The translations under genes were made by a program, and so were the position numbers. Below, one piece after another: positions 21,632 through 63,960 of a stretch of 64,000 nucleotides of DNA. Source of the DNA: Cyanidioschyzon merolae. Lineage: Eukaryota. The notes under the pieces were generated by a model. That model had not been told where the DNA came from. It saw only the letters and a program-made list of their open reading frames with translations, and did no database searches. Where the stretch lies: NCBI GenBank assembly GCA_000091205.1, contig AP006496.2. One strand, 5' to 3'. How positions within the stretch are numbered: the stretch's first letter is position 1; each line of letters begins with the position of its first letter.

Positions 21632-21669
<38 letters not shown>

Positions 21670-30184: not shown

Positions 30185-33100
30185 GGTGCGTCTCCCAGCG
30201 ACAGCGACCGGCGTGAGGGATTCAAGCTGTCACCAGGTCGTGTGCGAAAACAAGTTCTCGAAACAAGCGGAGGTCTAGCGTTCGGTTTTGGGCGCGGAAA
30301 CTATGTGTTTCGGCATGCGCCCAACTGTATTCAGGACTAGCGAAGGACGAAACATTAGAATCGTTCATGAATCGCCGAGGTGAATCGCGTTCGATGAACG
30401 TGGAGAGTGGTCTGGACTTTGCGGACTGCTGAACCGTATCATACTCGTGCTTTGGTACCAGCCGGACTCCAATGCATGCTCTCTTGGCCACTGGTTTTCT
30501 ATCAGAAATATTCTTCGTTTCAGTACCATACCCCCGCTGGGCACGAAACGATATCCCGGAACGGACTTTCGACATAGAGCCGTTGGACGATATAAACCAC
30601 GAGATATTTCCGAACGTTGACTGAAGCGTTCAAGTCTCTGTTCAGTACGCGCTTCCGCGCATTGTCGCTGGTGGAATCACACCGCAGCAATGCGCTCATC
30701 TTCCATTACCTCGCCATCTGACACTCGGTTAACGTATCGTACAGCATCTCGTAGAACTGTCTCTGTTTCACGCTCTTCTTGTCTACCGGTTTCAGCGTGC
30801 ATGTGTCGAGATGACGCGTATGTCTCGTCCTGAACTGATTCGCGAGCATCGTACGGAATCGATTCCTGCGTTCGTTGCACGCTGCCGTCGAGAGAGCAGG
30901 ACTACAGCCCTTGCTCTGGAAAGCGAGCCCAGTGTCATCGGATACCCGAAGAACGACGCGACTTGTCGACCGTTTCCATTCTCAACGCATCCAACAAGTT
31001 GGCGAATGCATGGTTCTTGCTTCCGTAGAATAGAAACGACTGGCGACCTCAGCGCGCGGTCTGTTGTACCGTGTGCCAACCATCGATCGCATGAGCCGCT
31101 TGGACGCTGCTGTGCACTCAGCATGAAGTGTACAAAGCGTCCTGCTCTGCTCGATACGGTGCAGAGGGTGTGGTGACGGGTCCTGACGCAATCCATCCAT
31201 TTGCTGGTGTGCATTCTGATGTCTATGATGCCCGACGTGCGCTTATACCGAGCACTGGAAAAGTTTCGCAGATGCATTCACTTCCGATTGGGTCGTTGTC
31301 TCCGTCGTCTCGACTGACTGACACATCGACGGGCGTGACGTCCCTCATTCGGACGTCGACGACGACCAACAAATCTTTCTCTTGACCTGCCTTGGACGGT
31401 TGAAAATGAGTCTCATTGCGCGACTCTGAACCAGGTTTTGCAAAGTGCATGCAGATGGATGTTGCGGCGTCGTCCGTGCTCGAGACAGTTTTTCTCCACG
31501 CTCTACTGGTAAACGAGAATCCTTGAACGAGCTTCGCCAATGCGCCACGTCGCGTTGGTCGAATGCTGGTTGCTTGCACACAGAAACCAGCTATTGATCG
31601 CTGAAGAGGTCGTACATTACCGTGCACAATTGTCTTTGGTGATAGCATATGCCTTGGAATGACTGATCGCGATCATGACGTATAGACGCTAGAGGAGACA
31701 CCGATGCTGGGATTCGGGGAGCGAGTCTGCATTGGCCTGGACGGCACTGTTCCCGAAAACGCAGTAATGCGAGATGTATGCAAGGCAGGCATCACGTTTC
31801 CGTCACAATTTGGATATGACGTGGGTTGGTCCAAGGCCCAGAGAGCAACACGACAACCTTGGACGATCTGGAAGGACGCCTGCTCGTGTTGCGATATCTT
31901 TTGCGAGTGCGCCAGCGCTTCGAACGCGTATGTCACCAGCTCAACATATGCCTCCATCGACACCGCGAGTATCCCTTCTGTCAGTGTCCAATGATCCCGG
32001 CCAGTGAGATGAGTCTACTAGGGGTAAAAAGCCCACAGGGCGTGCCCCGTGAAGCGCTCCACATTGGCTCGCATATGCTTTTGGTTTTCAGAATGCTTCG
32101 ATACTTTGTCGCATCTATCCTGCGGTTAGGACGGTCACAGACGTGGCAACGCGACGCGACAAGGCATTCTGGCACGTGTGTGTTTTTTTTTGCGATCCCT
32201 GCTCCGACGATCACGCCATTCTGCATCCTCTGCCCGGGGTATATGTTGTGTCGTCGTACGAAGGTTTGATCGAAGAATTCCACAGGAGCGAGGACAACTG
32301 GCACCTATGCGTACGGATCTCGTGAGGAAACTTCCTCGACGAGGTGCGTCAAGACGTGCAAAGCGAGGTAAACCCTCGTCAACGGACAAACCGAGCGATC
32401 TCCAATAGCGTCCGGCATATCTTTTTGGAAGATTTGTCCTGGCGCTACGTCCTCGTAGAAAAGCTTTTACAACGGTTTCAGGTTGATCTCCCGGCTCGGA
32501 AAGTTTCTCGTTTCGGTACCTTCTCGTCCTCTTTTCGGGAGGATTTCTCCTTTTCATCCGATGACTCCTTCTCCATTTCGTTTCTTTCGCGATGTGGCAT
32601 GGATGCGATTGTTGTACTCCATACCTGGTTTCTGTCGGGATTCAGATGCGCTGGATTACGGGTGATACCAGGATCCGCATTCTCTATGTATGTATCTACT
32701 ATTCCTCAGATAACTTTTGGTGAACTTCTCCGTCGCGAGCTTCTCTGCAGGCCGACAAAGGCATTGCCACCACCCGATGCGCACGAACTGTAGCGTCACA
32801 GCGCAGTTGAGGGCCGGTCAAGGTAGAGAACTACCTGCCAAGCAGCAATTCATCGAAAACCTTTCGTTTCACGGATGCAAACGACTCGTCTAGCGTTTCA
32901 TGGCCGTAACTACGGTATCAAACAGCAGAGAAGACGCTTTCGTCTGGATTGAATCAGGGGAACACGACGACGCGAAGAGCAACAGAACACCAATCATAGC
33001 TGCGTACTCCTTTATTGCTTTGGTTGATCCAAAGCGAAGTTCTCTAATAGGTGGACAGAGGAATGCGGGAAGAGGAAGCTACGAAGAGTGCCAACACGAG

Positions 33101-34964
33101 GGTTAAGATGCTGAAGGATCCTGACCGTTTGGCGATGTTTGGGCGACCAGACCAGGGCGTCGCCGTATGGCTGACGTTGTCGTCATACTCGCTTCTCGCT
33201 TCTATGCGAGCACCAGCTTAGTCCTCTCTGCGCACTCGCATACAGATCTACCATTTCTCCCAAATAAAGCCTCATGAATGTAGGTGAACACCTGGCCCTC
33301 CAGTGCCAAGCGTTCGCATTTCACCAGGATATCGATCGTGCGTTATTCAACGCGTGACGCGTCTAGCGTAGAAATCTGTGTTGTTCTCGGTCCGATAGGG
33401 TGTCTTCATCACTGTCCGCAATAGCGGTCCGGATGCTTCACATCCTGTGGCTTCTTCTATAGTGCTTCCTGGGGAAATCAAGGCATGGATTGGATTGACG
33501 AGAACATAGTCGTTCAGATAGGGTTCGCCAGGTTCTGTCGTGGACGCAAAATGTTAATATTAGGGATCAGGAGAGCGGCGGCTCACCTAGCCGATGAACT
33601 ATGAACGACTGATTGATGAATGAGCGACCGTTTGAGGCATGCTAGCAGCGACAAAGTCAAGTCTTTATGGCACCTTCCTTCAATCTGCAGGTTACATTCT
33701 TTTTGTTGAATAGATACGAAAAAAATAAACAAAAATAAAAACAGGTGTGTGAGTACGGGTGTTCCAGAACCCACTGCTCAGAGTCTAACGTCTCCGGATT
33801 TCGCAGCAGAGCGCATGAGGTAGCGTGCACCCTCGGGCCCATTTCCTCGGTAACGATCATGACCTGAATAGGCGGCAAGCGTCGCAGAGCTTCGGTGCGC
33901 AGTGGCAGTGGGTCGCAAGCTCTGCGTTTACAGAGCATGCATCCAGCTTCAAAACGTTGAATGCCGGTCAGTTTTTCTGGATTTTCACCACGTCGCTCTC
34001 GCTTAACATAGACTGGAGGGAAGGAATTCGTCGACGTGGCGTACCGCGTGCACGACATAGCGTCAGCGGGGCTTTGCATTGCGCACTGCAGAGCCGGCTC
34101 TTCGGGCACCTATTTCGCTTCCACGAACTGCGTCATTCGTGCGACCGGGTTGGCGTCGAGGGCGCGCTCGCTTTCGAAACCCCATGGTTTCGAGCCGCTC
34201 GCGAGAAGCGACAGCTCGGTGAGCACACTCTAAAAGACCGCTGTTGCAACGAGACGGGTCGGTTTCCTTTGAAAACTTCACGGCACTGGGTCGTCAACAC
34301 GCGTACAGCCGGGGCTCTGGGTTACGGCACTGAGGTAAAACCTGTGACTTGCATATGGTCGACGTATTTGATCCCTGATCCAGATCCATAAAACTGTGTA
34401 ATCCAGGACGTAGTACTCCCGTTCCAGAAGAGCCCCGCAACTCCACTTTCAGAGAGCGATGCAACCAAACACCGCGCCGCTGCATACCGTTAACCTAGCA
34501 GGCTCCTTCGTTAACGAGGCACCAAAAAGGCAAAGACGAGCACCGCCACAGAGTCCCAGAGACTCTATGCAATATCTCTTGCCTCCAAGCGCAAGGCTAG
34601 GGGGGCTTGAGAACGCCCGAACAACGGCGTGCAGGGTCCATTGCCCCAGACAAACACGTGCCCGCAAAATCCGGTCCCAATAATAGACACAACGTGATAG
34701 CGTCAGTGCAATGTACAATGTATGGAGGCTTGAGTCCGCCAGTCGGAAACCGCATACATTGCCAGAAGAGCCTACGTGTTTCCGTGAGCAGTTGGTGCAC
34801 CGCCTGCGATACGAGGCGCGCCGATGCCCACTCGAAGCGCGCGCGCGCGCGCAGGCACGCCGCCTCGTCTGATAAGAGACTCTTCGTCGTCTGCCGCGGC
34901 TTTGTTGAGTGTTATTCTCCTGTACGCAGCTCTTGCTCCAGTGGGTACAGGCGCGACGCATACC

Positions 34965-35264
34965 ATGTCAGGTTCGCTATGGAAACAACTGCTTACGCGC
35001 GGTAGCTCCTGGATAGAACCTTCAGCGTCTCCCGAGGCGTGGGAAACGACAGCTGAACTTCGCAGGAAGCTTCTGTACACACACCTAAACGCTTTGCCAG
35101 CTCGTTGGCAGGCCGCACAGAACGAGTTCAGGGCGCTGCTGGACAAGATGCGCGCGAAGCAGGTCACCGTCGAAGAGGCCGGGTGGTTCGGCGTGCGCTG
35201 TGTTGAGCTGTATGCATTCTATTGTTTGGGGGTCGTGATCGGGGCGCGCTCCCTCCAGCCGTGA
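34965..35264 (+). CDS. Candidate mitochondrial F1Fo ATP synthase subunit g (ATP5MG/Atp20-like), about 99 aa
   Basis: The internal ATG of ORF 34824..35264 gives a protein ending ...KQVTVEEAGWFGVRCVELYAFYCLGVVIGARSLQP. This resembles the subunit-g C-terminus (human ...TVKEAVLNGLVATEVLMWFYVGEIIGKRGIIGY, yeast ...YSVGEIIGRRKLVGY) including the GxxIGxR motif. Size is appropriate. Confidence 0.45.
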   Translation: MSGSLWKQLLTRGSSWIEPSASPEAWETTAELRRKLLYTHLNALPARWQAAQNEFRALLDKMRAKQVTVEEAGWFGVRCVELYAFYCLGVVIGARSLQP

Positions 35265-35693
35265 GCACCGGCTGCGCCGGCCCCACGACTGTGCAGCGCT
35301 CTATAGCCTGGGGTCCGTGACACGCACCGTGCCCCGATCAATTTGCTTCTGAGTCTACAGGCGCGAGTATGCGTGCGGAAGGTCTTTTTGATTCAGAGTT
35401 TTACGAGGATGACCTGGGTATGATCATACGAGATAAAGTGTGCAGCGGGTCCTGCGTTGGAGGCCCTCTCATCCACCTGAATCCAGCTTCATGGTGAGCT
35501 CCGGCTCGCGCGGGGCGTTGCCCACAAGCACGCGTGCGCACTTCGTGCATGCCTCTCGGTTAGACGTTGTAAAACAGATCAATACCGCAATGATGGCGTC
35601 CATGATTGTACGCAGCAGAGCGATCATGCCGATGCGCTATCTGCCGCACCAGGAACGTTACCGTTGACGGGGATACGTTGTTCGCATCCTCTA

Positions 35694-36311
35694 TCACGCA
35701 TGTGCCATGCGCCTCCTTGGTGTTTTCGCACCGCCCGGTGTGCGCCTCTCTCGACTAGTGCTGCGCGCACGCTGCGGCCGTTGGAAACGTTTCCTGAGCC
35801 CCTGGTCCAGGCCGAGGAACGCCAGCACCTCCACGAAAACAAAGAGCGGTGCGCTCGCAAACGCCTGAATGAGGTTATCCAGCAGCGCCGGGCGACGTTT
35901 CTCCAGCCATTCATGAGCAGCAAACTGAGCAGACCACCCCAGCAACTGGATGACGAGAAACGCAGACCAAACGACCTGTGCGTCAGGGGCGCGAAGCAGA
36001 AGCGCTCTGCCCGCAAGGTACAGAGGCAGGACCATCACTAGCGCTGCACTTGCTCCCAGAAGCGGCGAAAGCACGATATAATACAGCGCATAGGCTACAG
36101 CGACTATCAGTCCGAGATCGAGCTTCACACCACCGAGCGAAACGCGCCACTGCGCTAGCGCTGCTAGCGCACTGCCAAGCAGCAACGGAACGAACACCAC
36201 GTGGACCAACTGATTGACAGGGTGCGCGTGATATTTTAGATAAAATCCATACTGTTCAGCAAAGTCAAGACTTAAGACTGCTGCTGTATGTCGCTTCCGC
36301 TCCCCCGTCAT
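35694..36311 (-). CDS. DUF962/Mpo1-family membrane protein (yeast YGL010W/Mpo1-like, Fe(II)-dependent 2-hydroxy fatty acid dioxygenase family)
   Basis: FYLKYHAHPVNQLVHVVFVPLLLGSAL (yeast FYKFYHHNPKNVLIHSIFVPTILFS) and WLEKRRPALLDNLIQAFASAPLFVFVEVLAFLGL (yeast FEKRRPALIDNLVQSLVLAPYFIMFEFLFKLG) match the family signatures. Confidence 0.85.
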   Translation of the reverse strand: MTGERKRHTAAVLSLDFAEQYGFYLKYHAHPVNQLVHVVFVPLLLGSALAALAQWRVSLGGVKLDLGLIVAVAYALYYIVLSPLLGASAALVMVLPLYLAGRALLLRAPDAQVVWSAFLVIQLLGWSAQFAAHEWLEKRRPALLDNLIQAFASAPLFVFVEVLAFLGLDQGLRKRFQRPQRARSTSRERRTPGGAKTPRRRMAHA

Positions 36312-36477
36312 GGTTCACGGAACTGTCGTGTGTGCTGTTCTGGAAGTCAACAAGCAGCCGCTTATTCAGAACGTTCCTGGTACGCGAATTGCGCGCAGAG
36401 CGCACTGCACGTGCGCGATCGCAGATTTTTCTCGATTTGCAAAAACTTTTACGTAGACCATGGATCCCAGATTGTGG

Positions 36478-36594
36478 GATGCATTGGCATTGGCATTGGC
36501 ATTGGCATTGGCATTGGCATTGACATTGGCATTGGCATTGGCATTGGCATTGGCATTGACATTGGCATTGGCATTGGCATTGGCATTGACATTC
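36478..36594. repeat. Hexanucleotide minisatellite (GCATTG)n of about 20 units, with GACATTG variants every 5-6 units
   Basis: gcattggcattggcattg...gacattggcattg read directly. Lies about 170 bp upstream of the Mpo1-like start codon. Confidence 0.95.
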
Positions 36595-36730
36595 GGGAAA
36601 GCGTCCATCATGTTGCGACACCCTACTTCCAAGTTCCATGACCCATACTTCCTCTTTGGTATACTGGTCGTTTCGTATGTTCTATCGTGCGCCGAGTACC
36701 TGCTTTGAACCCCAGCACAAGCACCGCTAC

Positions 36731-37066
36731 CGCTGGAACAGATACTGCACGGAGACAGAACGGCTTTGCTATACCGCTGAGGGTATCGGGCTGAGGCGTG
36801 GTTGGCGCGATACCGGGTCGGAGTACACCGTAACTCTGGGATCGCTCGAGCAGAGACTGCACGGAGACAGAACGGCTTTGCTATACCGCTGAGGGTATCG
36901 GGCTGAGGCGTGGTTGCCGCGATACCGGGTCGGAGTACATCGTAACTCTGGGATCGCTCGAGCAGATACTGCACGGAGACAGAACGGCTTTGCTATACCG
37001 CTGAGGGTATCGGGCTGAGGCGTGGTTGCCGCGATACCGGGTCGGATTACACCGTAACTCTGGAAT
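36731..37066. repeat. Tandem array of a unit of about 113 bp, roughly 2.9 copies (unit begins ctgcacggagacagaacggctttgctataccgctgagggtatcgggctgaggcgtggttg...)
   Basis: Period measured between ctgcacgg occurrences at 36744, 36857 and 36969. Units differ by a few substitutions. Overlapping ORF-track proteins show the same repeated peptide in several frames, so the array is probably non-coding. Confidence 0.85.
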
Positions 37067-39039
37067 CCTGCAAGCTGTGCAGAGAGACGTACTGCGGTCG
37101 GTAGCACGTGGCGGCTTCGGTTTGTGTGCCTTGCTGAATGTTAGGTTCAGGATCTTTTGCAACGAGGTGGCGCATCTCGAGGTACGATCGATGCGCACCT
37201 GGTCCTGTCAATGTCACAAACCGCGAATCAGACTTTCGTCAAAGGTTAACAGTTCGCTGACGTGACCCTCAGGGTACCGGGCGTATAGTGTGCGCTCGCG
37301 GAGAGCGCCGCTGAGGATGCTGCGTTGATATACAGCAACTTCACCACGTCCAGGAGAACGTCGGCAGGGAGTCGAGATATTCGATGCGTCTGCTGCAACG
37401 TATGGCACATGACCCTGGATGAACAGCCGTGCATGTGCATCGCATGACTTCTGTGGGGTTTCTTGCGAGATACGTCGATCAGTTGGTCAGAGTCCGGGGC
37501 CACAGCTGTTTCTTCAGATCGATCACAAGTAAAGAATGAGTTCGGTAATACGTCGCCGCTCCGAGGGCGCGATATGCGCATGCCCTGAGTCACGGGGTAT
37601 GGCGGATCGGCGAGAACGTCAGTGCTGCTCGCTTGTACCCTACCAAGCGGAACAAATCGACACAAACGAGCTATTTTGTTGTCATGATACCTCGAAGATC
37701 CGGCAGACGGACCACGAACCTGAAGTGCAGTGTTTCTGCATATGCAACGCAAGAGCGCCAGCGCCGGGTTCCGTGTCCGGAAGATGTGCGCAGCCTCGTT
37801 GAACCCGAACCCAGGTTGTTTTGAGAGCGAACCCCAAGTTGATTTGCAGCAGCCGCAACGATCGTCGCATGCTTCTTGTTCGTTTCTGACCGACGTGACT
37901 GCATCCAGCGCGCGGAGATGAGCAAGTATTCAGGCCTGCCGAGCGTTCGAGGAAAATCCAGAGTCCTAAGCTGCATGGACAAAGCAACTGCATCTGCCAC
38001 GTAGCCACGGCACTGTAGCGTCAACAATTGCGATGCACCGGAGGCTTCTCCGCATGCAATCGCAGGGATCGTGAGCCTTGTTCGCTGCTGTATAGCAGGA
38101 ACTTGATTCAACTCGCAGTCGTGCAGCATCCATCGCATCTCCAAATGCTTTGTTCGCGAGACTTGCGGATATAACGCTCGCTGCGCAGCGTTCTTGAATA
38201 TGATCGCTGACGGCTTCATATGCGGAGCAAAAACCTGCTAGGCACATCTGGGCAAAATTACCGTGACGACGGCATCTCGGCGCCTCGAGCTCCGGATCCG
38301 ACGTACGCCGCTACGGTGCACATGCACGAGATCTCGCTCGCGAAAGTAGTGTGATCCTTTTTTCGTATCATTTGCCACCTAAAATAGCAGTTTGTGATCA
38401 GTCTCGGAGGTTCGGGTCAGATATGAGAGCACGTACACGCTCCGAATAGCACCGTTTCATTGCCTTGGGGATTCCAGCGTCCAGTGCTTCGCCTGGCGTG
38501 CGTCATTGCTGTGACGCTCGAACGCCCAGCGCACCGGCAGACGCACATCGCACCAGTGTGCCGAGCATTCGCGCTGATTCCGGAGACAGATTTATAAACG
38601 GAGCCTTTAAATCGAGTCAACAATCCCCAGTCCTAACTTTCATTGAACAGGCTCCATGCTGTACCTGGTTGTTCATGCAGTGTAAGCGCGTGCTCGAGCG
38701 AACGAGTCATGAAAAGGTCTGGCAGTCGAGCGCATGCCCGTACGCAACAGATGGTGTGCATATGACTCGATGCAGAGCGCACTCGAGCGCATGTCGAGCT
38801 GTGCCCAGCACGCTGTCTATCCCTGGATTCGCGAACGGTACGCTTGAATTACGATCCGTTCAGCTGCAAAAGGCACATACCTCGGACATCCGGTTCTCGA
38901 TAGAGATATCGCAAGCTGGAGATGGTTTGCATGGTGCCGGAGAATGAAATCCGTTCTTATCGCACAGGCATACACCGATGCGCCGTTTCTGCAACATAGC
39001 GTCATACCAGAAAGGCAAAAGCTTCGTGCACAGAGCAGA

Positions 39040-39232
39040 CAAACGACACTGATTGCGCTGCATCGTTGCTAAGAGTGATGCTATGCTATGCGGCGGTATA
39101 CGCCATGACCTGAGCATCTCGTGCGTTTTCTGAGGTATGCACCAAGCAAACAGACGGCACTGTTTGCGCTGCATCCTTACTAAGAGTGATGCTATGCTAT
39201 GCGGCGGTATACGCCATGACCTGATCATCTCT
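39040..39232. repeat. Tandem duplication of a unit of about 112 bp (2 copies)
   Basis: gctgcatcgttgctaagagtgatgctatgctatgcggcggtatacgccatgacctgagcatctc recurs as gctgcatccttactaagagtgatgctatgctatgcggcggtatacgccatgacctgatcatctc. Confidence 0.75.
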
Positions 39233-39308
39233 TGTCTCTGCCTCTGAGGCGCTCGTCACTGTATGCATCCTCAGGAAAATCAACGGGAGCAGGAGCCAGC
39301 CCGCTCGT

Positions 39309-39941
39309 CTATTCGCGTACTTCGATGCAACGACGCGGACGAGGCCGCTCCGGAGGTGCTGGTAAAGGCTCCTGCTCGAGTTCTGGTGCAACCACTATTT
39401 CGTTGGGCTCAGGAACAAGTTCTGCCGGTTGCGATGTTTCCTCTTTCTGTTTGGACTCGTGGCCAAAGCGTTCGCGAAAAAAGCGGACAACATCATCCAT
39501 GCTCTGCCTCAGGTCCTTTCGAAGCGATGACGGGCGTGTATCCTTTGCCCAGGGCACATAGCGACCAAACCCTTGACCAACACCGACACAGCCGAACCCT
39601 ATGCCTACGCCGCAACCCGTGAACGCCCTCGGTGCCTGGATGCCGTAGCGACGCACGCTCTCAAACGACCAACCAAGCGCTAGCAAACAACAGCCGGTGC
39701 CACAGCCGAGAATCGCTACACCGGCCGGAGGCAAAAAAGATGGCAGTTGCACCGCCGCAACTGCAGCGTGCTTCCAAGCGCTCGCACCCGAAAGCCGCCG
39801 CCGTGCACCAGTCCCTGTGCCAAGCGTCCAGCTTGGAGGTGCGTGCGGCTCCACCCAGGTCGACCGAAGCACGCTCGAACCAGCGTCCAACTGGTAGTTC
39901 AAGCTCCTCGCGAAACAGTTAAGTCCACACGCTTGTTCCAT
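39309..39941 (-). CDS. Putative small membrane protein with glycine-zipper (GxxxG-repeat) transmembrane segments and an acidic, Pro-rich C-terminal tail. Family uncertain (Tim17/PRAT-like or Gly-zipper).
   Basis: GVAILGCGTGCCLLALGW and FTGCGVGIGFGCVGVGQGFG hydrophobic Gly-rich segments. The ORF is in the favoured GC3-rich frame. No strong family-specific motif. Confidence 0.3.
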   Translation of the reverse strand: MEQACGLNCFARSLNYQLDAGSSVLRSTWVEPHAPPSWTLGTGTGARRRLSGASAWKHAAVAAVQLPSFLPPAGVAILGCGTGCCLLALGWSFESVRRYGIQAPRAFTGCGVGIGFGCVGVGQGFGRYVPWAKDTRPSSLRKDLRQSMDDVVRFFRERFGHESKQKEETSQPAELVPEPNEIVVAPELEQEPLPAPPERPRPRRCIEVRE

Positions 39942-41171
39942 AAAGGCTTAGACACAGGAGAATAAGTTATTGAAAGCAAAGCCAAGTGCAAAGGTGCTGT
40001 GGCTCTGCACCACCCCGGCATCGGTGCTTCGCGTTCCCGCCAGCACCTGCGCCGGAAGATTCTTCGCATTCGCCGGAGGCTCAGCACCGGCAACCCTTGT
40101 GCGGTACCAGAGCGCAGGCGTCGCTCAGTATAGAGGCGCCACGGCGGATGCTGAAGGTAGACTTTGCGAAACGTAGATCGTACGCAGTGACCAGCATCTC
40201 CGAGATACGTTTGGGTAGATGCTGGTGGTTCCCGGAACGCACACTGCGGAATGATCATGCCATCCCAGATGACGATATCCATCGTGGAATCTAAGATCCC
40301 TGGTGCATGTCACTCTATGCTGTCGATCAGAAACGAATTGCTATCATGGGCTGTAGAACGCGCCCGCACGACACGGGCGATGCCGCACGGTCTTTAGGTA
40401 GCACCCGTTGCCGTTTTGCAGGAGGCTTCTGTGAAACCAAAAGTTACTGCAGGCTCGGTACCCGCGGGGTTCCTGGAACGGGATAGGTTACCGCCCCAGC
40501 AGATGTAGCTCAAGCGGTAGAAGCACGCAGTCACTACAGACAAGACGAGATGCTTGAAAGTTGGAGGTTCACGCGTCCAAGGCGGTCCACTGGGGTACCA
40601 GACATGTGAAATCCGCTGGTGTTGAACCGAATTTGCGGTATCTCGGGGAAGCCCATGTATCCTCCATGTACGCTCATACAATTGGGCGCACGGATAATGC
40701 GATCGTTTCATCGCCATTGCAATATACAAGAAGCGGAGGGAATCTATCATCCGGTATCTTGGTTGCTCACACAGCTCGACACTGAGGTTAGATGCAACAT
40801 GCTCGGATGGTGCGCTTTGCAAAAGCATACCTGCAGCGGGTCTACGTCTCCCTAGATGAACACTGCACTGAAATTGCGGGACAGAAGCGTCCGCTGAACA
40901 TACCCGGTCTATACTTCGACATTTGGCAGCGTTTGCGCTTCCACGCGCGTCTATTTAGGGTCAGTAATCCAGCGTCTTCATCAAATGACGAGATCGGTAA
41001 AGACTACTAACCGCTAGAGCGGTTGTGTCGCATGACCTCATCCCGCGACAATGGATATCGATCCATGATATGGGCACTCATGTCAGAATCAAGTAGAAAA
41101 TGATCCACTTTGGTGAATCAGGTGTCCAGTCTAAAGTTTGGGTCTCGTCCCGCATTCATGAACCATGGCCT

Positions 41172-42437
41172 TTGGGGGCTTTTTTTTCTCGGCGACAGCT
41201 TCCAGTCGTTCTCTTCTTTACATCAAGATCAGTTTTCAGCAGTCGAGGGATGGATGTTGATGGCAGCGTTCAACGCCCGAATTCCCTGCTTTCCGCTACG
41301 TTCTATTCATTGAGCCGACAGACGCTACATGCGATCTACGCTTCGCATACGATACTCTTTTCTTCTGTATACAGCCTCGGTGCGCACGTCGCACCGTTGA
41401 CAAATGAATGCACAGGGGCGCTCCCATGCGCCCACGAGACGCGCTACTTACGGACAGCCGCTTTGTGGCGCTTGGACGTTGGCGTCATCGCCCGTTACAC
41501 ACCCTTGGCGCGATAAACAAGGCTGACCCAGAAATGCCCTCCGCAGTTTCCGCACCCGGTGTTGTGTCGCAGGTGCACGGGCTTGGTCTGTGCGATGCCC
41601 TCAGCGCATGCCCTCTGAACCGCACGCGCAAGAGCAAGCAGCACCACTCGATACAGGGTTTGCGGGACGCTTTCTTCCACGTCTTGAGACCAGTACCAGA
41701 CCGAACATCTAGACTTGAGAGCAGGTCGAGAAAATGCGATCCGTCTACGCCCCCGTTCATGGAAAGCGATGGCGGTCGTACCGCCAAATGCGATCGCATC
41801 GATGACTCAAGCGCGAGTCCAAGACCCTTTGCTGGCAAACAGATGAGCCGCCAGCCCCTGAGTGCATACCCCCTGAGAGGCACCGTGCCGCTGCCGTCGG
41901 ATGCCGAATGACATGTCGTCGACGGCCACCAAGAGCGGAGGGTATGTGTTTCGAGCTGAATCTGTTGCTTGATGAGACAGGTTCAGTGAACTTTCGGCAT
42001 GAGCGTCTGGGAAAGTCTCCAAAGCTGATGTAGAGTTTTTCCCCGTCGTCGTCCATCCAGCGGCGATGCCTGCTGCGCCCTCGTGCTGCCTTGAAGCAGA
42101 ACCATCGAAAACTTGAAGAATTCGGTATCTGAGCGTGCTGCAGGCAAGGAATGTTGAAACGCAGAGTCCGCATCGTATGATTCGGATAGTGCTCCCGTTC
42201 ACGTTACGAAGCGTAGATCGAGGGCGTCGACACTCCCCTTGTACCGTGCACATAACGATTTCCAGCGGCAAGGAGTCGAACGAGCCACTCGGAAAACTCG
42301 ACCGAGAACCCGGATTCAATGAATGCATCTGATAGCGCTCAATGCGGCATATCTACTGCCAACGCTCTACATCTACAAAGCAAGACTGAGAATGCAATCG
42401 CAAGGCAGCAATTGATCGAACGGTTCAGTGCTCCATT
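41172..42437 (+). repeat. Interspersed repeat family 2, copy A (about 1.27 kb)
   Basis: Inverted with respect to copy B. The 167-aa ORF-track protein MHRGAPMRPRDALLTDSRFV... is identical to the minus-strand ORFs of copies B and C. Boundary read at ttgggggcttttttttctcggcgacagc on the left and ...cggttcagtgctccatttttatgg on the right. Confidence 0.9.
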
Positions 42438-44169
42438 TTTATGGTGGCAGGTGTATAGAGTCTAGGATATGGTTTAAGGCGCAATATGGATGACGAAATG
42501 TAACGGATTGTCGCGGCATGAAGAGAAAATTTTAGATGTACGAGTATTCATGAAGCCAAGACTGTACTCATCTGACGAGCCGCTGCAAGCGACACAGTAC
42601 AAGTAACGCTGATCATTTTGACGATAGTGGACATTTTTCTTGTTGTGCATTGTGTACAACCTGGCGCATAAGCAGCGCGCGCTCTCCAGCAGTGGCTCTG
42701 CACCGCGACCGCAACTACCTCGTGTATTACACAATTCCCGCAACAGAGTACGCTCACCATCGACATGATCCGTCTCTAGTTGCGCGCTTACGGCGTTACA
42801 AGTTCCAGCTGGCGGCTATTCTGACACTATCGGGAAGTGCTCTGGTTGCAGACGGAGAACCGGAACCAGCGCGACGAAAGAGCTGCAGTCGAACCGCAAT
42901 TCTCTGATGCAAAGGTTCACAGAATGCTTCGTTCGTGATGCAGCGTGGAGAGAAGCAGTGCGCTCCCTCCATTGCCCCAAGTTCCTTTTCGTGAACTGAC
43001 CCGCAGGCACTACGGGCATCTTCCTGATACCGCCAGTCCGTTTATTGTTGCTGCTCGGGCAACTTGAAGTGCTAGACGGTTTCTGCTAGAAAACCCGCCA
43101 AAAAGCTTGCTATACGGCGTTTACATATGAATCTGCCTAGTAACCCTAGTCGTCCGGCGTTCTCGCTGGCCGAGGAGAACGTTGTCACTTCGGAATGCAG
43201 ATGCTGGCGCGACATCCTCGGCGCGATGCATTGCTGCCCAGAGAGTTCCACAATCGAATTTGTCTGTTTCGTGTCTGCCACAGCATGTGGAATACAAATG
43301 TTTGCCGAACAGAAGATTGAAAGTTCTCCAACAGGTCCGGTCGCTGCAGTGTGCAACGCCTGCGGAGGCGCTCCCGCGTTCGAGGTTATTTATTCAGAGG
43401 GTTTCAGGCACTCACGGTTTAAAAGCATGAACCAGACCCGATCGCACAACGGCTCGTACGATAGCTGTCGCTGTGTCGTCTTCGATACGCCGTGGCGAGG
43501 CACTGGCAAAGCTACCTCTCCATCAGTCCCTGGTGTGGCGCTGAGCTCGTGGCCCCAGGCTCTGAAGGTCTGGGGGCCCTTGGCTTCGCTGCAAGCGCGA
43601 GTTTTCCGTAAACAATGTTCGTAAAACTCTTCCAAAGCCTCACACAGACCACGATTCGATTCGTGCACGCCCATACCGTCAGTGCACCCGGCGTCAGGCG
43701 TGTCGTAAAGGTAACACTGGAGCCCGCTCGTTGCCCTGTTTGGAGGACGCTTGTGTGCTGTGTTGCAACTTGCTCGCCGAGCCACAGTCGTTCGCTAAAC
43801 GCACCAATTACACCATGTTAATCTCAAGTCCGAGTAGAGCACTGTTCGAAACGTCCTCTTTATGCCAGAGTCGAGAATGGCTCTTATTCGCAAACGGTCT
43901 GAAAGAAATAATGCGGCGGGTGTGCGGCGTCGCCCGTGTTCATCGAATATCCTGCATCGAGTTGGTGCTGCCAGGAGGATATTGTCGTGAATATCGATCA
44001 ACATTCATCCAAGACGCATGTACCTCCGGAGGGAAATATGGAGAGTAGTGGTTCGAACTTGAATCTACAGAGCGGTATCATGGATGCTCACGCTGAAACC
44101 GATAACCGTCACAGAATCAGGGCTCCCTGCTTTATGTCAATATTCTTCGACACTACACTGGCGACGGCA

Positions 44170-45443
44170 TAAAAATGGAGCACTGAACCGTTCGATCAAT
44201 TGCTGCCTTGCGATTGCATTCTCAGTCTTGCTTTGTAGATGTAGAGCGTTGGCAGTAGATATGCCGCATTGAGCGCTATCAGATGCATTCATTGAATCCG
44301 GGTTCTCGGTCGAGTTTTCCGAGTGGCTCGTTCGACTCCTTGCCGCTGGAAATCGTTATGTGCACGGTACAAGGGGAGTGTCGACGCCCTCGATCTACGC
44401 TTCGTAACGTGAACGGGAGCACTATCCGAATCATACGATGCGGACTCTGCGTTTCAACATTCCTTGCCTGCAGCACGCTCAGATACCGAATTCTTCAAGT
44501 TTTCGATGGTTCTGCTTCAAGGCAGCACGAGGGCGCAGCAGGCATCGCCGCTGGATGGACGACGACGGGGAAAAACTCTACATCAGCTTTGGAGACTTTC
44601 CCAGACGCTCATGCCGAGAGTTCACTGAACCTGTCTCATCAAGCAACAGATTCAGCTCGAAACACATACCCTCCGCTCTTGGTGGCCGTCGACGACATGT
44701 CATTCGGCATCCGACGGCAGCGGCACGGTGCCTCTCAGGGGGTATGCACTCAGGGGCTGGCGGCTCATCTGTTTGCCAGCAAAGGGTCTTGGACTCGCGC
44801 TTGAGTCATCGATGCGATCGCATTTGGCGGTACGACCGCCATCGCTTTCCATGAACGGGGGCGTAGACGGATCGCATTTTCTCGACCTGCTCTCAAGTCT
44901 AGATGTTCGGTCTGGTACTGGTCTCAAGACGTGGAAGAAAGCGTCCCGCAAACCCTGTATCGAGTGGTGCTGCTTGCTCTTGCGCGTGCGGTTCAGAGGG
45001 CATGCGCTGAGGGCATCGCACAGACCAAGCCCGTGCACCTGCGACACAACACCGGGTGCGGAAACGGCGGAGGGCATTTCTGGGTCAGCCTTGTTTATCG
45101 CGCCAAGGGTGTGTAACGGGCGATGACGCCAGCGTCCAAGCGCCACAAAGCGGCTGTCCGTAAGTAGCGCGTCTCGTGGGCGCATGGGAGCGCCCCTGTG
45201 CATTCATTTGTCAACGGTGCGACGTGCGCACCGAGGCTGTATACAGAAGAAAAGAGTATCGTATGCGAAGCGTAGATCGCATGTAGCGTCTGTCGGCTCA
45301 ATGAATAGAACGTAGCGGAAAGCAGGGAATTCGGGCGTTGAACGCTGCCATCAACATCCATCCCTCGACTGCTGAAAACTGATCTTGAAGTAAAGAAGAG
45401 AACGGCTGGAAGCTGTCGCCGAGAAAAAAAAGCCCCCCAATAG
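44170..45443 (-). repeat. Interspersed repeat family 2, copy B. It is the inverted partner of A (spacer 42438..44169) and the direct partner of C.
   Basis: The reverse complement of A's right end (cataaaaatggagcactgaaccgttcgatcaattgc...) begins at 44170. It ends at ...gctgtcgccgagaaaaaaaagcccccc at 45443. Confidence 0.9.
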
Positions 45444-46203
45444 CTTGGCCTGATCACAATGGATATCCATCCTCCCTTTATCGTTTACGCCTGTATTAGC
45501 AGAGTCGACTTTTTTGAGTCAATGCTAAGATGAATCTTGTACATGTGCCAGACTTTACAAAGTGCATCTGTTCCATTTCTTGCTGATACGGGCACAACAG
45601 AAACAGCGTCCATGTCCAGCCATTATTCGTAAATTCACCATTGTTCAAGGCTACACACTGTGAAAGTGATGCCAATCAGAGCAATCCACAAGCGCTCGAT
45701 GCTCACATCACTGCACGTCTATACATCTATATTCTGTACAAAGAGCGCCACCCGATCCAGTCCGTTCGGTCTCAGCGTCCGCATCAGCACCCAACACAAT
45801 GCCGCTGGAGCTTCCTGCGAGCTGGATCCGCTCCGTTCACCAGTGCGAAACTGCGTCTAGCATGCACCACTTCTATGTAGTCGCGTGTTATGATGCACGC
45901 GAGCGCTGCGTATGCATCCCGGAATACAAAGCGCGCATCCATGGCCAGCCGCGCACCTAGGAAATCACGAGAGCATCGGTGCCGCATCATCATCATCATC
46001 ATCATCACGAGAACAACAATAACAACAAGTACGAGGCGGGTGCGTTTTCGCCAGCATTTCGAGGTTGTGTCGCCTGTGCTGTGCACTTGGATCGCGCGCT
46101 TGCCTTGCACTCCATGGATAGATGATGACCGATACACCCTTTTGTGCAAGTACTACTCGAATATCGATACCAGGGTGCCTTCTGCGCAGACTCGCGAGCG
46201 TGG

Positions 46204-49125
46204 TCACGAGGAGAACGCAGCTCCGCCAATCTGATCCCCGGTTCGAAGGACCGTCCCTGGCGATGCAATGTCGCCATTCAGCATAGGTACACCAGCGACA
46301 TCACCCAAGGTGGTGCCGCGAGGAAGTCGGAGCAACTTGCCCGAACTCTTATCGAATACGACGACATGCTGTTCCAGTTCAACGATTTGATGATAGAGTA
46401 CGCGAAAGTATTCACTGGTTGTTCCCAACGAAGCTGTGACGGTATCATCGAGAATAACATCCGCTCGACGCGACTCGGAATGCGTCAGTGTTTCCGAGGC
46501 GAGCGTCTCGCCTGAGGGCGGCTGCGTTGCCGGTAACGCTGCGACACGAGCGGGTGTATCCGATGGACCCGCTGCCGTTGTTGCTGCCGTCGGTGTGCTT
46601 ACGGCACCCGAGGCATCCGCCAGTGAGGCTACAGCAGCATCCGAGTCCGCTGCGACGTTGGATTCAAATTCGAACTCACCAACAGAAGGAGCACAGGGCG
46701 TATTGGCTAACGCCGCAGCATGCGCGATAGCGTTCCACGCAACAGCTTTCTCCCGTTCGCTCATGGCAGACGGCGAGACTGTGGTATTCGCAAAGCCCCG
46801 ATCCGTGAACAGATTCAGATTCTGCTTGTAGAGCCAGTGCGCGGCCCTGCCGTACTCCGCCAGCCGATGCATTCGCTCCGAACGCACCTGAACCTCAACC
46901 GGGAAGCCGTCGATAACTACCGTGGTATGCAGACTCTGATACCCGTTCTCCTTGGGCCAACGTATGAAATCGCGTCGCCTTTCGCGCACACTTGGCCAGA
47001 GTCGCTCGATGATGGCCATGACGGCGTCGCATGCCTCCAGCTCGCTGCTCTGATGAACCGGTCGCACAACAACCCGCAACGCCATCAGATCCAGAATGCT
47101 GTCGATGCCGCTCCCGAGACGAATCATCTTCCGGTACGTCGAGTAGAGACTCTTCACACGACCTCTGATGCGCCACGACCAAATGTAACTGTGCAACTGA
47201 GGCTCCAGACTGAGCGCATTTTCGATCGCTTGGCGAGCGTACTCGAGGATATCGGCACCTGCATCAAAGCGCAGTGCAACTTGCCGTCGCAGCGCCTCAC
47301 TCTGTTTTGGAAACAACAGCAAAAACGCCAGCTCCTCCATTTCGCATTGGAGGTAGTAGATGCCGAGCTGATTTGCGAGCGGAGCTACCACTTCCAGCGT
47401 CAAGAGAGCCAATCGCTGGGCAGTCGCATGCGTCATTGCGTCGAGCCGCTGCCTAGCGGGCGCGAGACTCGCCCGCTGGTCATCAGCGCCATCCGTATGG
47501 GATCGCGTCTCGCAAGACGCCTCTCGTGGTGTCAAGAGTCCGGGTGATACGCACGTGGGTGCTTGTTCCGCGGTCTCCTGCATCGAATTCAGTGAGCGAT
47601 CAGCAGGCGTATGCGAAACTGCAGGAGCACCAGAGGCATATGCCCCGGACGCCGTCGACGTACCCCTCACGACAGACGTCGCCACCGACTCGTCCATTGA
47701 CGACGCTGCCTCGCAGCTTCTTTGTGGTGCATTTCCCTCAGCTGCGCACGTATCTGGCGACGATGTTGCAGCGTCCATATCATCCATGAGGCCGAATGCT
47801 TCGCTGTACACGCGCAACTCGTGCAGCGTCCCTGCAAAAAAGAGCGCCAACGCGCGCCAGTCTTTGGCGACACCGATAAGCAGCTGCCGCAGACCTGCGG
47901 GATTCGAATCCATACTCGTCGCGTAGATAATGCCACGTATCGCCCTCTCCTGAATCAGAATATCTGCAACCGACCGGCCGAACTCGCTGGCGATCTCTCG
48001 CGTAGCCAGTGGTGTGTCCAGCAGAGCAGCTGCCAGCACAGCCTCGAGGTCCATCTGCAAGTCGATGACTGTATTCAGAACAGCACGACAGCGAGCGAAG
48101 CTGCGGTGTTTGCGCTCCTCGTGTATGGCGACACCCCAGGGTGTAGTCGACACAGCCGCTATGCGCCGTGCCGCCCTGTCGCTTGTACTTGGCGCGCTAG
48201 CTGCGTCCGGCGACAGGCGTTCGCGTTCCCCTCGCGCGCTTGTGCGCAAGTTCATGTCTGGTGGTGATGGTGGTGCATTCGCTGGGTCTGCCGTACTGCC
48301 TGCATCAGCATCTGGCGGTTGTCGAGCAGGCGAGTGCTGCATCGTAGCGGAACGCTGTAGCGAACGTTCCAGAGCAATGCGCACGAGGGATGAACCGATG
48401 GGTCCCAGGTACGCACAGCGAAGCTCGACATCTTCAATGAAGCGCTGCAAATCCTGTGTGGAGGATGGCCAGCCCGGGCCTTCCGCAACCTCACTGCATC
48501 TTCGCTGCTTTTCCAGGTTCTGGAGCGCCCGGCTAACCTGCGATGAAACCTGAATAAAATCTGAGCTGGAGACGTCTTTCGAGACTCGCTCTGGTGCCCG
48601 CCTGTGCTCGTTACGTCGCTGGCTCAGGGCTCCTGATTCGCGAGCCGCACCAAAGCACTCATACGTTCCATGCCTTGCGGGAGTGGTCGCTAGTCCCTGG
48701 CGGCGGCTGCGGTGCAGAAAAAGGCGCACGCCGACAGGTTTCCCAGTCGCTGACGGAGGCCGCTCCGGAACATCTTGCTGTTCACTGCGGGTGTTTTCAT
48801 CACCCGTGGCCACCTGAGCATCACCAGTCTTGTGTCGCACGTTCCAGACACACTTTGGTGCAGCAGAAGCGCCTTCCTCGCCATAGAACGGAGTTCGCTC
48901 AGGAAGCAGCCCCTGTTCGACCGGATCGATGCCCAGACGAAGAGCGCAGCGCCGCCCTTCGAAGCGGCCGCTACAAAACACCCTCCGTACAGGCGGAACG
49001 CGTAGGAGTGCTCTGTTTGCCGCACATAGTGCCGCCGCGCTCCCAACGAAGCCGTGAACCCGCTCTATTCGCACAGGCTGCAGACTCGGCTCAACGAAGC
49101 AGCTCGATGAGCGCCCAGTTGACAT
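46204..49125 (-). CDS. RSH: Long RelA/SpoT homologue (RSH): N-terminal extension, degenerate HD (pseudo-hydrolase) domain, low-complexity linker, intact (p)ppGpp synthetase domain and C-terminal TGS domain. No ACT or EF-hand region.
   Basis: Synthetase core VVAPLANQLGIYYLQCEMEELAFLLLFP...IRGRVKSLYSTYRKMIR...ILDLMALRVVV...ENGYQSLHTTVVIDGFPVEVQVRSERMHRLAEYGRAAHWLYK matches the RelA_SpoT consensus (GRxKxxYSIYxKM, DxxAxRIIv, NGYQSLHTtv, EVQIRT..MH..AE.G.AAHW.YK). HD region AAALLDTPLATREIASEFGRSVADIL...AKDWRALALFFAGTLHELR aligns to AALLHDvvEDT...AkDiRVilIKLADRLHNMR but lacks the His-Asp dyad and the ADRLHN Asp. TGS LRLPRGTTLGDVAGVPMLNGDIASPGTVLRTGDQI lies at the C-terminus. Confidence 0.88.
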   Translation of the reverse strand: MSTGRSSSCFVEPSLQPVRIERVHGFVGSAAALCAANRALLRVPPVRRVFCSGRFEGRRCALRLGIDPVEQGLLPERTPFYGEEGASAAPKCVWNVRHKTGDAQVATGDENTRSEQQDVPERPPSATGKPVGVRLFLHRSRRQGLATTPARHGTYECFGAARESGALSQRRNEHRRAPERVSKDVSSSDFIQVSSQVSRALQNLEKQRRCSEVAEGPGWPSSTQDLQRFIEDVELRCAYLGPIGSSLVRIALERSLQRSATMQHSPARQPPDADAGSTADPANAPPSPPDMNLRTSARGERERLSPDAASAPSTSDRAARRIAAVSTTPWGVAIHEERKHRSFARCRAVLNTVIDLQMDLEAVLAAALLDTPLATREIASEFGRSVADILIQERAIRGIIYATSMDSNPAGLRQLLIGVAKDWRALALFFAGTLHELRVYSEAFGLMDDMDAATSSPDTCAAEGNAPQRSCEAASSMDESVATSVVRGTSTASGAYASGAPAVSHTPADRSLNSMQETAEQAPTCVSPGLLTPREASCETRSHTDGADDQRASLAPARQRLDAMTHATAQRLALLTLEVVAPLANQLGIYYLQCEMEELAFLLLFPKQSEALRRQVALRFDAGADILEYARQAIENALSLEPQLHSYIWSWRIRGRVKSLYSTYRKMIRLGSGIDSILDLMALRVVVRPVHQSSELEACDAVMAIIERLWPSVRERRRDFIRWPKENGYQSLHTTVVIDGFPVEVQVRSERMHRLAEYGRAAHWLYKQNLNLFTDRGFANTTVSPSAMSEREKAVAWNAIAHAAALANTPCAPSVGEFEFESNVAADSDAAVASLADASGAVSTPTAATTAAGPSDTPARVAALPATQPPSGETLASETLTHSESRRADVILDDTVTASLGTTSEYFRVLYHQIVELEQHVVVFDKSSGKLLRLPRGTTLGDVAGVPMLNGDIASPGTVLRTGDQIGGAAFSS

Positions 49126-49884: not shown

Positions 49885-50964
49885 AATGCATTCATAGAAT
49901 CCGGGTTCTCGGTCGAGTTTTCCGAGTGGCTCGTTCGACTCCTTGCCGCTGGAAATCGTTATGTGCACGTTACAAGGGGAGTGTCGACGCCCTCGATCTA
50001 CGCTTCGTAACGTGAACGGGAGCACTATCCGAATCATACGATGCGGACTCTGCGTTTCAACATTCCTTGCCTGCAGCACGCTCAGATACCGAATTCTTCA
50101 AGTTTTCGATGGTTCTGCTTCAAGGCAGCACGAGGGCGCAGCAGGCATCGCCGCTGGATGGACGACGACGGGGAAAAACTCTACATCAGCTTTGGAGACT
50201 TTCCCAGACGCTCATGCCGAAAGTTCACTGAACCTGTCTCATCAAGCAACAGATTCAGCTCGGAACACATACCCTCCGCTCTTGGTGGCCGTCGACGACA
50301 TGTCATTCGGCATCCGACGGCAGCAGCACGGTGCCTCTCAGGGGGTATGCACTCAGGGGCTGGCGGCTCATCTGTTTGCCAGCAAAGGGTCTTGGACTCG
50401 CGCTTGAGTCATCGATGCGATCGCATTTGGCGATACGAGCGCCATCGCTTTCCATGAACGGGGGCGTAGACGGATCGCATTTTCTCGACCTGCTCTCATG
50501 TCTAGATGTTCGGTCTGGTACTGGTCTCAAGACGTGGAAGAAAGTGTCCCGCAAACCCTGTATCGAGTGGTGCTGCTTGCTCTTGCGCGTGCGGTTCAGA
50601 GGGCATGCGCTGAGGGCATCGCACAGACCAAGCCCGTGCACCTGCGACACAACACCGGGTGCGGAAACGGCGGAGGGCATTTCTGGGTCAGCCTTGTTTA
50701 TCGCGCCAAGGGTGTGTAACGGGCGATGACGCCAACGTCCAAGCGCCACAAAGCGGCTGTCCGTAAGTAGCGCGTCTCGTGGGCGCATGGGAGCGCCCCT
50801 GTGCATTCATTTGTCAACGGTGCGACGTGCGCACCGAGGCTGTATACAGAAGAAAAGAGTATCGTATGCGAAGCGTAGATCGCATGTAGCGTCTGTCGGC
50901 TCAATGAATAGAACGTAGCGGAAAGCAGGGAATTCGGGCGTTGAACGCTGCCATCAACATCCTC
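49885..50964 (-). repeat. Interspersed repeat family 2, copy C (about 1.08 kb, truncated at both ends relative to B, same orientation as B)
   Basis: Begins at aatgcattcatagaatccgggttctcggtcgag and ends at cgttgaacgctgccatcaacatcc. Internal ORFs are identical to A and B apart from a few substitutions. Confidence 0.9.
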
Positions 50965-62337: not shown

Positions 62338-63312
62338 TTACTCGACATGATGGAGCCAGTGCAATGTAAACGCACCAGATGCTGCATCGTCTTGTCTGTT
62401 CATGAACGCGTACAAAGCATCGTCGCCGGAAAGCGCCCAGAGGAACGCTGCCGCCCTGGTCGCTTCGTCTCGGAGTTTCTCCTCATTGGTTAGCCATTGC
62501 GAAAAGGTTTCCTCATCGCCAATCTCTATCCCACTCGAATACGTTGGTCGATAGAAGTGCGCAATGGTTTCCGCTCGATCCTGAAGCAGCGAAAACAGCT
62601 GACGCAGCGCTTCCAACGCCCGCTGATGCAGCGTCTCTGCGTAGACCCAGCGTCTTCGGGTACGTCGGAGGGCACCAACGCCAGGCTCCAAACGCTCTGC
62701 GCTCTCGCTCATTGTTGCTTGAATGCGTTTCACCAGGTGCGCGACTCGGATCCAAAGTCGATGTGGATGAAGCTGGTAGAGCGCACTCACGCCAGTCAAG
62801 CCGGCAGGCAGTGGCTCTGCTGCACCTAGAGCGGCAATCACCAGCGGACACTCGTCTATCTGTCGCATGACTGCGCCAACGAACTGTTTTAGTGGGGTTG
62901 CAAGAGGCGCCTCTAGTTGATCGCGGTACCTGCACGCGTGCTTCAGTCGGCGCCAACACGCAAAGAGCGCGAACCATTGGTTCCCATTTCGAACGAGCCC
63001 TTTAGCACCTTCCAATAGCTCTATGAAGCGAACGGCTGTACGCGCAGTCTCACGTTCAAGGCTCGTTGCCTCCATACAAAGTCGCTTACCCTCTGAAGCG
63101 GCTTCATCGCACGATGAGGACGCTGCGCAGACAAGCCACGCTCCCGAGTCTGCGTCGAAATAGTTGCGGTGCTCCCGCTGCCATCGGCTAAATGAGAGCA
63201 CTGCTCTGGAAACTCGCTCCTCTAGCGTTTCCAAGGACGTCTCATCCTCGGACATAAACGTTTCCAGTGCCAGTTGTTGTCGGAGCGAAGGCTGGTGTTC
63301 GAAACACCACAC
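62338..63312 (-). CDS. Hypothetical protein (324 aa). May continue upstream, since the in-frame-adjacent ORF 63349..63726 lies on the same strand and the window ends in a coding-looking minisatellite.
   Basis: Long ORF with GC3-rich codon usage. No recognisable domain. Confidence 0.3.
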   Translation of the reverse strand: MWCFEHQPSLRQQLALETFMSEDETSLETLEERVSRAVLSFSRWQREHRNYFDADSGAWLVCAASSSCDEAASEGKRLCMEATSLERETARTAVRFIELLEGAKGLVRNGNQWFALFACWRRLKHACRYRDQLEAPLATPLKQFVGAVMRQIDECPLVIAALGAAEPLPAGLTGVSALYQLHPHRLWIRVAHLVKRIQATMSESAERLEPGVGALRRTRRRWVYAETLHQRALEALRQLFSLLQDRAETIAHFYRPTYSSGIEIGDEETFSQWLTNEEKLRDEATRAAAFLWALSGDDALYAFMNRQDDAASGAFTLHWLHHVE

Positions 63313-63780: not shown

Positions 63781-63960
63781 TACGACTGTTACTGCTACTG
63801 CTGCTACTGCCGCTACTGCTGCTACTGCTGCTACTGCTGCTACTGCCGCTACTGCTGCTACTGCCGCTACTGCTGCTACTGCCGCTACTGCTGCTACTGC
63901 CGCTACTGCTGCTACTGCCGCTACTGCTGCTACTGCTGCTACTGCTGCTACTGCTGCGTC
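63781..63960. repeat. Minisatellite with an 18-bp unit (gctactgctgctactgcc), about 9-10 units, at the window edge
   Basis: Read directly. It would encode Thr/Ala-rich (or Ser/Ala-rich on the opposite strand) low-complexity sequence if coding. Confidence 0.9.

Follow-up and report, generated by a model that had tools for sequence, protein, structure and literature searches.

The window analyzed here is a stretch of 64,000 nucleotides from Cyanidioschyzon merolae. On its minus strand, at positions 46204..49125, lies a complete intron-less coding sequence (CDS), read as a single ATG-to-stop open reading frame (ORF) of 973 amino acids (aa) plus stop, which encodes a (p)ppGpp synthetase of the RSH4 class. 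The gene is very probably the nuclear CmRSH4b, with CMN082C as its deduced locus, and its product a plastid-targeted long RSH protein of the RSH4 clade. In BLASTP comparisons, the protein is identical at 973 of 973 positions to C. merolae 10D BAM81207.1 / XP_005537243.1, a database member (also UniRef100_M1VE92) titled "similar to GTP pyrophosphokinase". The sequence printed as XP_005537243.1 (Cyanidioschyzon merolae 10D) in the supplement of Avilan et al. (2019) is the same text as the window ORF.

Two domains are recognized by Pfam above the gathering score: HD_4 at residues 337-443 (E-value 2.3e-12; positions 47797..48117, minus strand) and RelA_SpoT at residues 655-769 (E-value 7.6e-30), the latter belonging to a region of linker helices plus synthetase at residues 566-769 (46819..47430, minus strand). 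This succession of an HD-type hydrolase fold and a RelA_SpoT synthetase, found with both Pfam and PDB matches, places the protein in the long RSH superfamily. The best solved relatives are the N-terminal domains of Rel/RelA, for instance Thermus Rel (6s2t, E-value 5.5e-37), and the NCBIfam spoT_relA models give sub-threshold matches restricted to the synthetase half. No TGS, ACT or EF-hand match was found in the full protein with Pfam at E ≤ 1. An original prediction, made from the DNA letters alone, had announced a RelA-like protein with a pseudo-hydrolase domain, intact synthetase and TGS domains and neither ACT nor EF-hand regions. All the motifs that it quoted were located where expected in the 973-aa ORF, and ACT and EF-hands are indeed missing at that Pfam threshold; these motif and domain observations are real and far beyond chance.

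The nearest proteins are a cluster of identical length and two proteins at ~50% identity, one of them from Cyanidiococcus yangmingshanensis. Beyond these ~50% orthologues, only bacterial Rel proteins match, at ~36% identity over the synthetase. The protein homologue search returned the same 7 matches from single-sequence and alignment queries, its depth possibly being limited by low-complexity words suspected of crowding the 8000-candidate word filter. The orthologues (P0002/P0003 and P0024) are ~50% identical overall and near-invariant in the pseudo-hydrolase domain, the synthetase and the C-terminal module described below.

Assignment of the gene

Chromosome letters are built into the gene identifiers of C. 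merolae, N being the fourteenth. The record that carries XP_005537243.1 measures 852,727 bp, exactly the length given for chromosome 14 by Nozaki et al. (2007, Table 1), who list AP006483-AP006502 as the accessions of chromosomes 1-20; CmRSH4b is CMN082C according to a 2026 proteomics paper. Four RSH proteins of C. merolae appear in Table S2 of Avilan et al. (2019), two as RSH1 and two as RSH4. The other RSH4, XP_005536559.1 (481 aa), is found on a record of 852,849 bp, corresponding to chromosome 11 (Nozaki et al. 2007). Since the identical protein lies on chromosome 14, CmRSH4b is CMN082C and the other RSH4 lies on chromosome 11, the window ORF should be CmRSH4b.

The alternative would be that the ORF corresponds to the other RSH4 paralogue, CmRSH4a, in which case the published activity and localization would not be directly applicable to it. 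This could be argued on the grounds that the identity of BAM81207.1 with CMN082C was deduced and not read off a locus tag, and that the identifier and length of CmRSH4a were not found in the literature searched. Nevertheless, just two RSH4-class proteins are listed for C. merolae by Avilan et al. (2019), and their chromosomes would call for identifiers of the CMK... type for XP_005536559.1 and of the CMN... type for the window protein, the latter being the type of the CmRSH4b identifier. A confusion of the two paralogues thus appears improbable. An attempt to equate the 324-aa ORF at 62338-63312 of the window with CMN088C (a weak BST1 homologue) failed.

Hydrolase and synthetase domains

For the residues of the hydrolase half, the protein was compared with P0004 and Galdieria RSH1, two intact references, as well as with Rel structures. 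In the multiple and PDB alignments, R345 takes the place of the HP-motif His. The LLHDxxED segment is reduced to LLDT (residues 368-371) by the deletion of four residues at the HD/ED site; three alignments are possible around this deletion, each placing D370 differently, and none of them supplies a His. Further downstream, the ADRLHN motif reads AGTLHE (431-436), its Asp and Asn being replaced by G432 and E436, respectively; the two ~50% orthologues have AEVLFE there, and P0024 has ADALYD. The LLDT and AGTLHE readings of the original prediction were thus located, together with the loss of metal-binding residues that it had drawn from them. A His-Asp dyad elsewhere was looked for in the whole protein and not found: the "HD" dipeptide is absent from all 973 residues and there is no His within residues 361-375, so the pseudo-hydrolase call stands. 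To judge from the aligned residues, the hydrolase half is a pseudo-domain, with neither the His nor the Asp positions for metal binding preserved.

One might still imagine a cryptically bifunctional enzyme, whose divergent HD domain would hydrolyse ppGpp through alternative ligands. The invariance of D370 in the three closest orthologues and the recognition of the HD fold by Pfam could be taken in this sense. Yet, the D370 position is occupied by Gly in the orthologue P0024 (ALRGS), and the lack of any His in 361-375 or any HD dipeptide, together with the substitutions at R345, G432 and E436, speaks against it. Moreover, the extended RSH4 clade is portrayed in the literature as active in synthesis only, its hydrolase being degraded, which makes residual hydrolysis by this protein highly improbable.

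If the hydrolase half is inactive, ppGpp would have to be removed by other means; the original prediction had supposed a gene outside the window, or else an alarmone level set by synthesis alone. When Rel, RSH1 and RSH4a were used as tblastn queries, no other RSH-like locus was detected in the window, and the candidate of a second RSH or Mesh1-like gene inside the window was rejected on these grounds. In agreement with the first of these suppositions, the printed sequence of the C. merolae RSH1 XP_005538788.1 retains HP...LLHDTVEDT. A Mesh1-like mitochondrial protein without the His-Asp motif, CMO005C, has also been described in C. merolae.

Contrary to the hydrolase half, the synthetase half keeps all conserved motifs. 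RGRVKSLYS is found at residues 654-662, LDLMALRVV at 678-686, NGYQSLHTT at 727-735, EVQVRSERMH at 744-753 and AAHWLYK at 761-767, and the intact residues comprise G655, R656, K658, D679, RRRD (716-719), Y729, Q730, H733, E744 and Q746. The intactness claimed by the original prediction is therefore borne out, including for G655, D679 and E744. The RGRVKSLYS, LDLMALRVV, NGYQSLHTT and EVQVRS motifs are invariant in four orthologues. The RRRD charge motif is of the basic RxKD type and aligns with KFKD of P0004, whereas the RelA-type sequences P0005-P0007 carry an acidic ExDD (EFDD/EYDD) at this place. Full-length metagenome variants of the protein differ from it at 4-11 of 973 positions, none of which is a listed catalytic residue.

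The genes that flank the locus are eukaryotic: they encode UTP20, a tRNA m1G methyltransferase, LETM1, fibrillarin, an ATR-like PIKK, an Mpo1-like protein and, further, a mitochondrial carrier, a PFK2/FBPase2 and a GOST-type membrane protein. Since the protein is identical to that of C. merolae and these neighbours fit, the window represents C. merolae nuclear DNA. A trypanosomatid origin, to which the GC-rich DNA and the lack of introns might have pointed, is rejected. That the gene could be a silent pseudo-enzyme or scaffold, or else a bacterial contaminant or recent transfer, is scarcely credible: its long low-complexity inserts and its closest non-algal matches (bacterial Rel, ~36% identity) might be held to suggest it, but the synthetase motifs are all intact and invariant across four orthologues, the environmental variants spare the listed catalytic residues, its neighbours on a finished chromosome are eukaryotic housekeeping genes, and synthetase activity is published for CmRSH4b, according to papers that cite the original study.

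C-terminal module

Two conserved elements follow the synthetase. The first is a short motif, PCAPSVGEFEFES (residues 810-822; 46660..46698, minus strand), located past the synthetase and ahead of the C-terminal module and near-invariant in the orthologue alignment; its counterpart in P0024 is SSGEFEFAAS. The second is the module itself (residues 890-968; 46222..46458, minus strand), made up of a conserved helix, EYFRVLYHQIVELE, and a reduced TGS-like beta-grasp, VVVFDKSSGKLLRLPRGTTLGDV...NGDIASPGTVLRTGDQIGG. With the C-termini of three orthologues taken in isolation, the Pfam TGS model (PF02824) still finds no match at E ≤ 10, and a sequence-profile search of the PDB with the C-terminus gave 0 matches. 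When a C-terminal profile built from four orthologues was compared with a bacterial TGS profile using hhalign, on the module alone and with the AAHWLYK anchor excluded, the two aligned with a probability of 76.5, an E-value of 2.2e-5 and a score of 31.2. Column-shuffled controls scored 10.6±2.3 with a maximum of 24.1, and 0/200 reached 31.2. The alignment leaves an 11-residue gap opposite xxVDFAYAVHT, a part of the TGS helix. A tblastn search with the TGS of P0004 also gave a weak match at the same C-terminal place (E-value 0.15).

Structural predictions point in the same direction. The AlphaFold2 model of residues 885-973 has a mean predicted local distance difference test (pLDDT) score of 74, rising to 83-91 in the core, and its top three PDB matches in Foldseek are the TGS domains of RSH proteins (2kmm, 6htq and 5l3p; E-values from 7e-3 to 2e-2, 26-32% identity). 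The fold is accordingly a beta-grasp closest to RSH TGS domains, although the sequence stays below the TGS profile threshold. Taken with the profile comparison, the model suggests that the module is most probably a reduced beta-grasp derived from TGS. The intact TGS of the original prediction has to be amended in this sense: a TGS-like beta-grasp is present, but as a remnant that lacks ~11 helix residues and falls below the Pfam threshold. The deleted segment is the one that we take to carry, in bacterial RelA/Rel, the His contacting the 3' end of deacylated tRNA. Since this tRNA-contact segment is missing, classical ribosome/tRNA sensing seems unlikely.

An exhaustive HMMER search confined the module to four orthologue clusters of cyanidiophyte type, among them P0002, the window cluster and the compact, 686-aa orthologue P0024. 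Other matches to the module profile (P0025-P0030) are TPR/repeat proteins with many short stretches and were not taken as homologues; one of them is a ThiS-repeat protein that shares just the generic beta-grasp motif "NG...DT.L..GD.I". In a table of Avilan et al. (2019), "MOAD" domains are reported in two Emiliania RSH4 proteins that adjoin the clade in the tree, and these may be the same kind of TGS remnant. More speculatively, the whole module (PCAPSVGEFEFES, the helix and the helix-less beta-grasp) could be a lineage-specific, TGS-derived regulatory device recruited to respond to some signal different from uncharged tRNA. This idea is rather doubtful for now; if true, it would imply an undescribed control of a plastid alarmone synthetase, beside the known TOR-dependent control of its expression.

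N-terminus and inserts

The original prediction had taken the N-terminal 250 aa as an organellar targeting extension. This seems appropriate for residues 1-66 (48928..49125, minus strand), which look like a transit peptide in their composition (Arg 17%, Ser 11%, Ala 11%, no Asp and no Lys) and in the orthologue alignment, where three orthologues share an invariant GFVG at 25-28. In Table S2 of Avilan et al. (2019), XP_005537243.1 has a "C" in the signal-peptide column, read here as a predicted chloroplast transit peptide. Residues 128-257 (48355..48744, minus strand), on the contrary, hold conserved blocks with invariant columns among three orthologues: GKPxGVRLFLHRxRR, FIQVSSQVxRAL and LRCAYLGPIGxSLVRIALER, also present in the compact P0024 (QYLGPVGVTLLKLALE). 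The last of them overlaps the start of the catalytic region as set by Avilan et al. (251-768). Because they are invariant across orthologues, these blocks are part of the mature protein, and the putative transit peptide would be confined to residues 1-66.

The pseudo-hydrolase and synthetase domains are separated by a poorly conserved, variable insert rich in Ser, Ala and Thr (residues 449-565; 47431..47781, minus strand), which is absent from bacterial Rel. The original prediction had put this low-complexity stretch at about 110 aa; it measures 117 aa. Along with two further inserts at 258-335 and 823-889, it varies between orthologues, and all three are short or absent in P0024, where the one at 449-565 is greatly reduced in length.

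Function and comparison with known RSH types

Several published results bear on this gene. According to papers that cite Imamura et al. (2018; Plant J 94:327), CmRSH4b is active as a (p)ppGpp synthetase, inducing its expression leads to a smaller plastid and less rRNA transcription, and its own expression goes up upon TOR inhibition. Both complementation of ppGpp-null E. coli and in vitro ppGpp synthesis are reported for it, so that the E. coli complementation proposed with the original prediction has, by these accounts, already been done. Chloroplast targeting was shown experimentally for a red-algal RSH, ascribed to CmRSH4b by papers citing Imamura et al. (2018). Furthermore, ppGpp inhibits the transcription of chloroplast 16S rRNA in C. 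merolae extracts. The synthetase-only, RelA-like and organelle-targeted (p)ppGpp producer that had been predicted from the sequence is thus supported both by its residues and by the CmRSH4b function as reported in the citing papers.

The classification of the protein is also published. A C. merolae Rsh4 was described by Atkinson et al. (2011) as having no EF-hand and a degrading HD domain. XP_005537243.1 is labelled RSH4 in Table S2 of Avilan et al. (2019), whose maximum likelihood tree places it (range 251-768) as the sister of Galdieria XP_005706615.1 with supports of 97.5/1/98. For the same authors, what defines the extended RSH4 clade is that the hydrolase is degraded while the synthetase is conserved, and they concluded that its members are synthetase-only; both traits are found in the sequence of the window protein. 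The gene has therefore already been annotated, classified in published RSH phylogenies (2011, 2019) and functionally characterized, and it is nothing new. It matters little as a discovery; its interest is that an inference made from sequence (a dead hydrolase, a live synthetase and hydrolysis provided elsewhere) matches the published biology.

These elements can be assembled in a scenario. CmRSH4b makes ppGpp in the chloroplast, and TOR inhibition increases its expression, with ppGpp in turn lowering chloroplast rRNA transcription, three steps taken from the literature. The output of the enzyme may be set mainly through its expression level and not through the sensing of ribosomes or uncharged tRNA; the loss of the TGS segment expected for tRNA sensing fits such a control. 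Removal of ppGpp would fall to a separate enzyme, RSH1, which has intact HD motifs. Some points nevertheless weigh against this view of the gene. The results of Imamura et al. (2018) are second-hand, being quoted from citing papers. The equation of the ORF with CMN082C comes from the chromosome assignment and the RSH4a/4b naming, not from a locus tag. Finally, the full-length AlphaFold2 model, obtained from a three-sequence alignment, has a mean pLDDT of 32 and is unusable for the geometry of the pseudo-hydrolase domain.

The comparison with known RSH types helps to situate the protein. It does not differ from CmRSH4b (BAM81207.1 / XP_005537243.1) at the protein level, only the equation of the names being deduced. 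Like the rest of the extended RSH4 clade, including the diatom PtRSH4a/b and Galdieria XP_005706615.1, it combines a degraded hydrolase, a conserved synthetase and predicted plastid targeting. Nevertheless, most representatives within the red-RSH4 clade have the synthetase Gly substituted, whereas G655 is retained here, and long inserts set the window protein apart at its N-terminus, between hydrolase and synthetase and between synthetase and C-terminus. The Galdieria sister ends just past the synthetase, the TGS-like remnant being found only on the side of the window protein.

The Ca2+-activated plant CRSH is likewise a plastid enzyme with a non-functional hydrolase and an active synthetase, but it bears a C-terminal pair of EF-hands where the window protein has none (Pfam E ≤ 1) and shows the TGS-like remnant instead. 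The bacterial RelA of the E. coli type is also a synthetase-only long RSH, in which a pseudo-HD domain precedes an active synthetase and a TGS-type beta-grasp. It differs by its acidic ExDD motif (basic RRRD of the RxKD type in the window protein), by its helical/ZFD/ACT C-terminal domains (none in the window protein, Pfam E ≤ 1) and by a complete TGS, the helix segment of which is lacking here. In published trees, plant and algal RSH1 and RSH4 group with Deinococcus-type Rel and not with RelA. As for plant and algal RSH1, they are long RSH proteins of the same organelle pathway which keep the HD motifs (HP...LLHDTVEDT...ADRLHN) but no longer have the synthetase Gly (VSARIKELYS / VAARSKEIYS). 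In the window protein the situation is reversed, with the HD motifs lost and the synthetase Gly kept. The contrasts with plant RSH1 and CRSH drawn in the original prediction consequently hold, but the domain combination is that of an EF-hand-less algal RSH4, already described in 2011 and 2019.

Genomic surroundings

A repeat of 1.1-1.3 kb is present in three copies of ~99% identity around the locus, at 41174-42443 (minus strand), 44168-45437 (plus strand) and 49886-50962 (plus strand). The two direct copies flank RSH4b, the CDS being separated from either of them by ~760 bp; the third copy is inverted and upstream of both. The ORFs of this repeat have no Pfam match; the repeat itself may be part of an interspersed element for which Nozaki et al. 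(2007) reported 253 copies. In the metagenome contig L001 (JGI 3300005861, Ga0080006_1108762), window positions 32923-42328 are joined directly, through the repeat, to window positions 50962->45310 in reverse. The RSH4b segment is thus inverted in L001 relative to the window, and the contig ends within the next repeat copy. This arrangement is either a real inversion between inverted repeats or an assembly chimera across the 1.1-kb, 99% repeat.

A second family consists of two direct repeats of 787 bp with 99.4% identity (9794-10580 and 15154-15940), which bracket the LETM1-like gene (11526-14231) in the same pattern as seen at RSH4b. Short tandem or near-tandem arrays were found by self-BLAST at 36481-36593, 36731-37067, 39027-39231 and 63792-63957, the first two being in or beside small ORFs near the Mpo1-like gene (35694-36311). 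The region from 27500 to 46200 comprises ~18 kb devoid of ORFs >220 aa and is unusually sparse with respect to the rest of the window; it contains small genes (the Mpo1-like one and a weak ATP-synthase-g-like call in L001) as well as repeats. Next to it, the ATR-like PIKK (2941 aa; 18694-27519, minus strand) has UME, FAT, PI3/PI4-kinase and FATC domains, an ordinary gene that supports the eukaryotic nuclear context.

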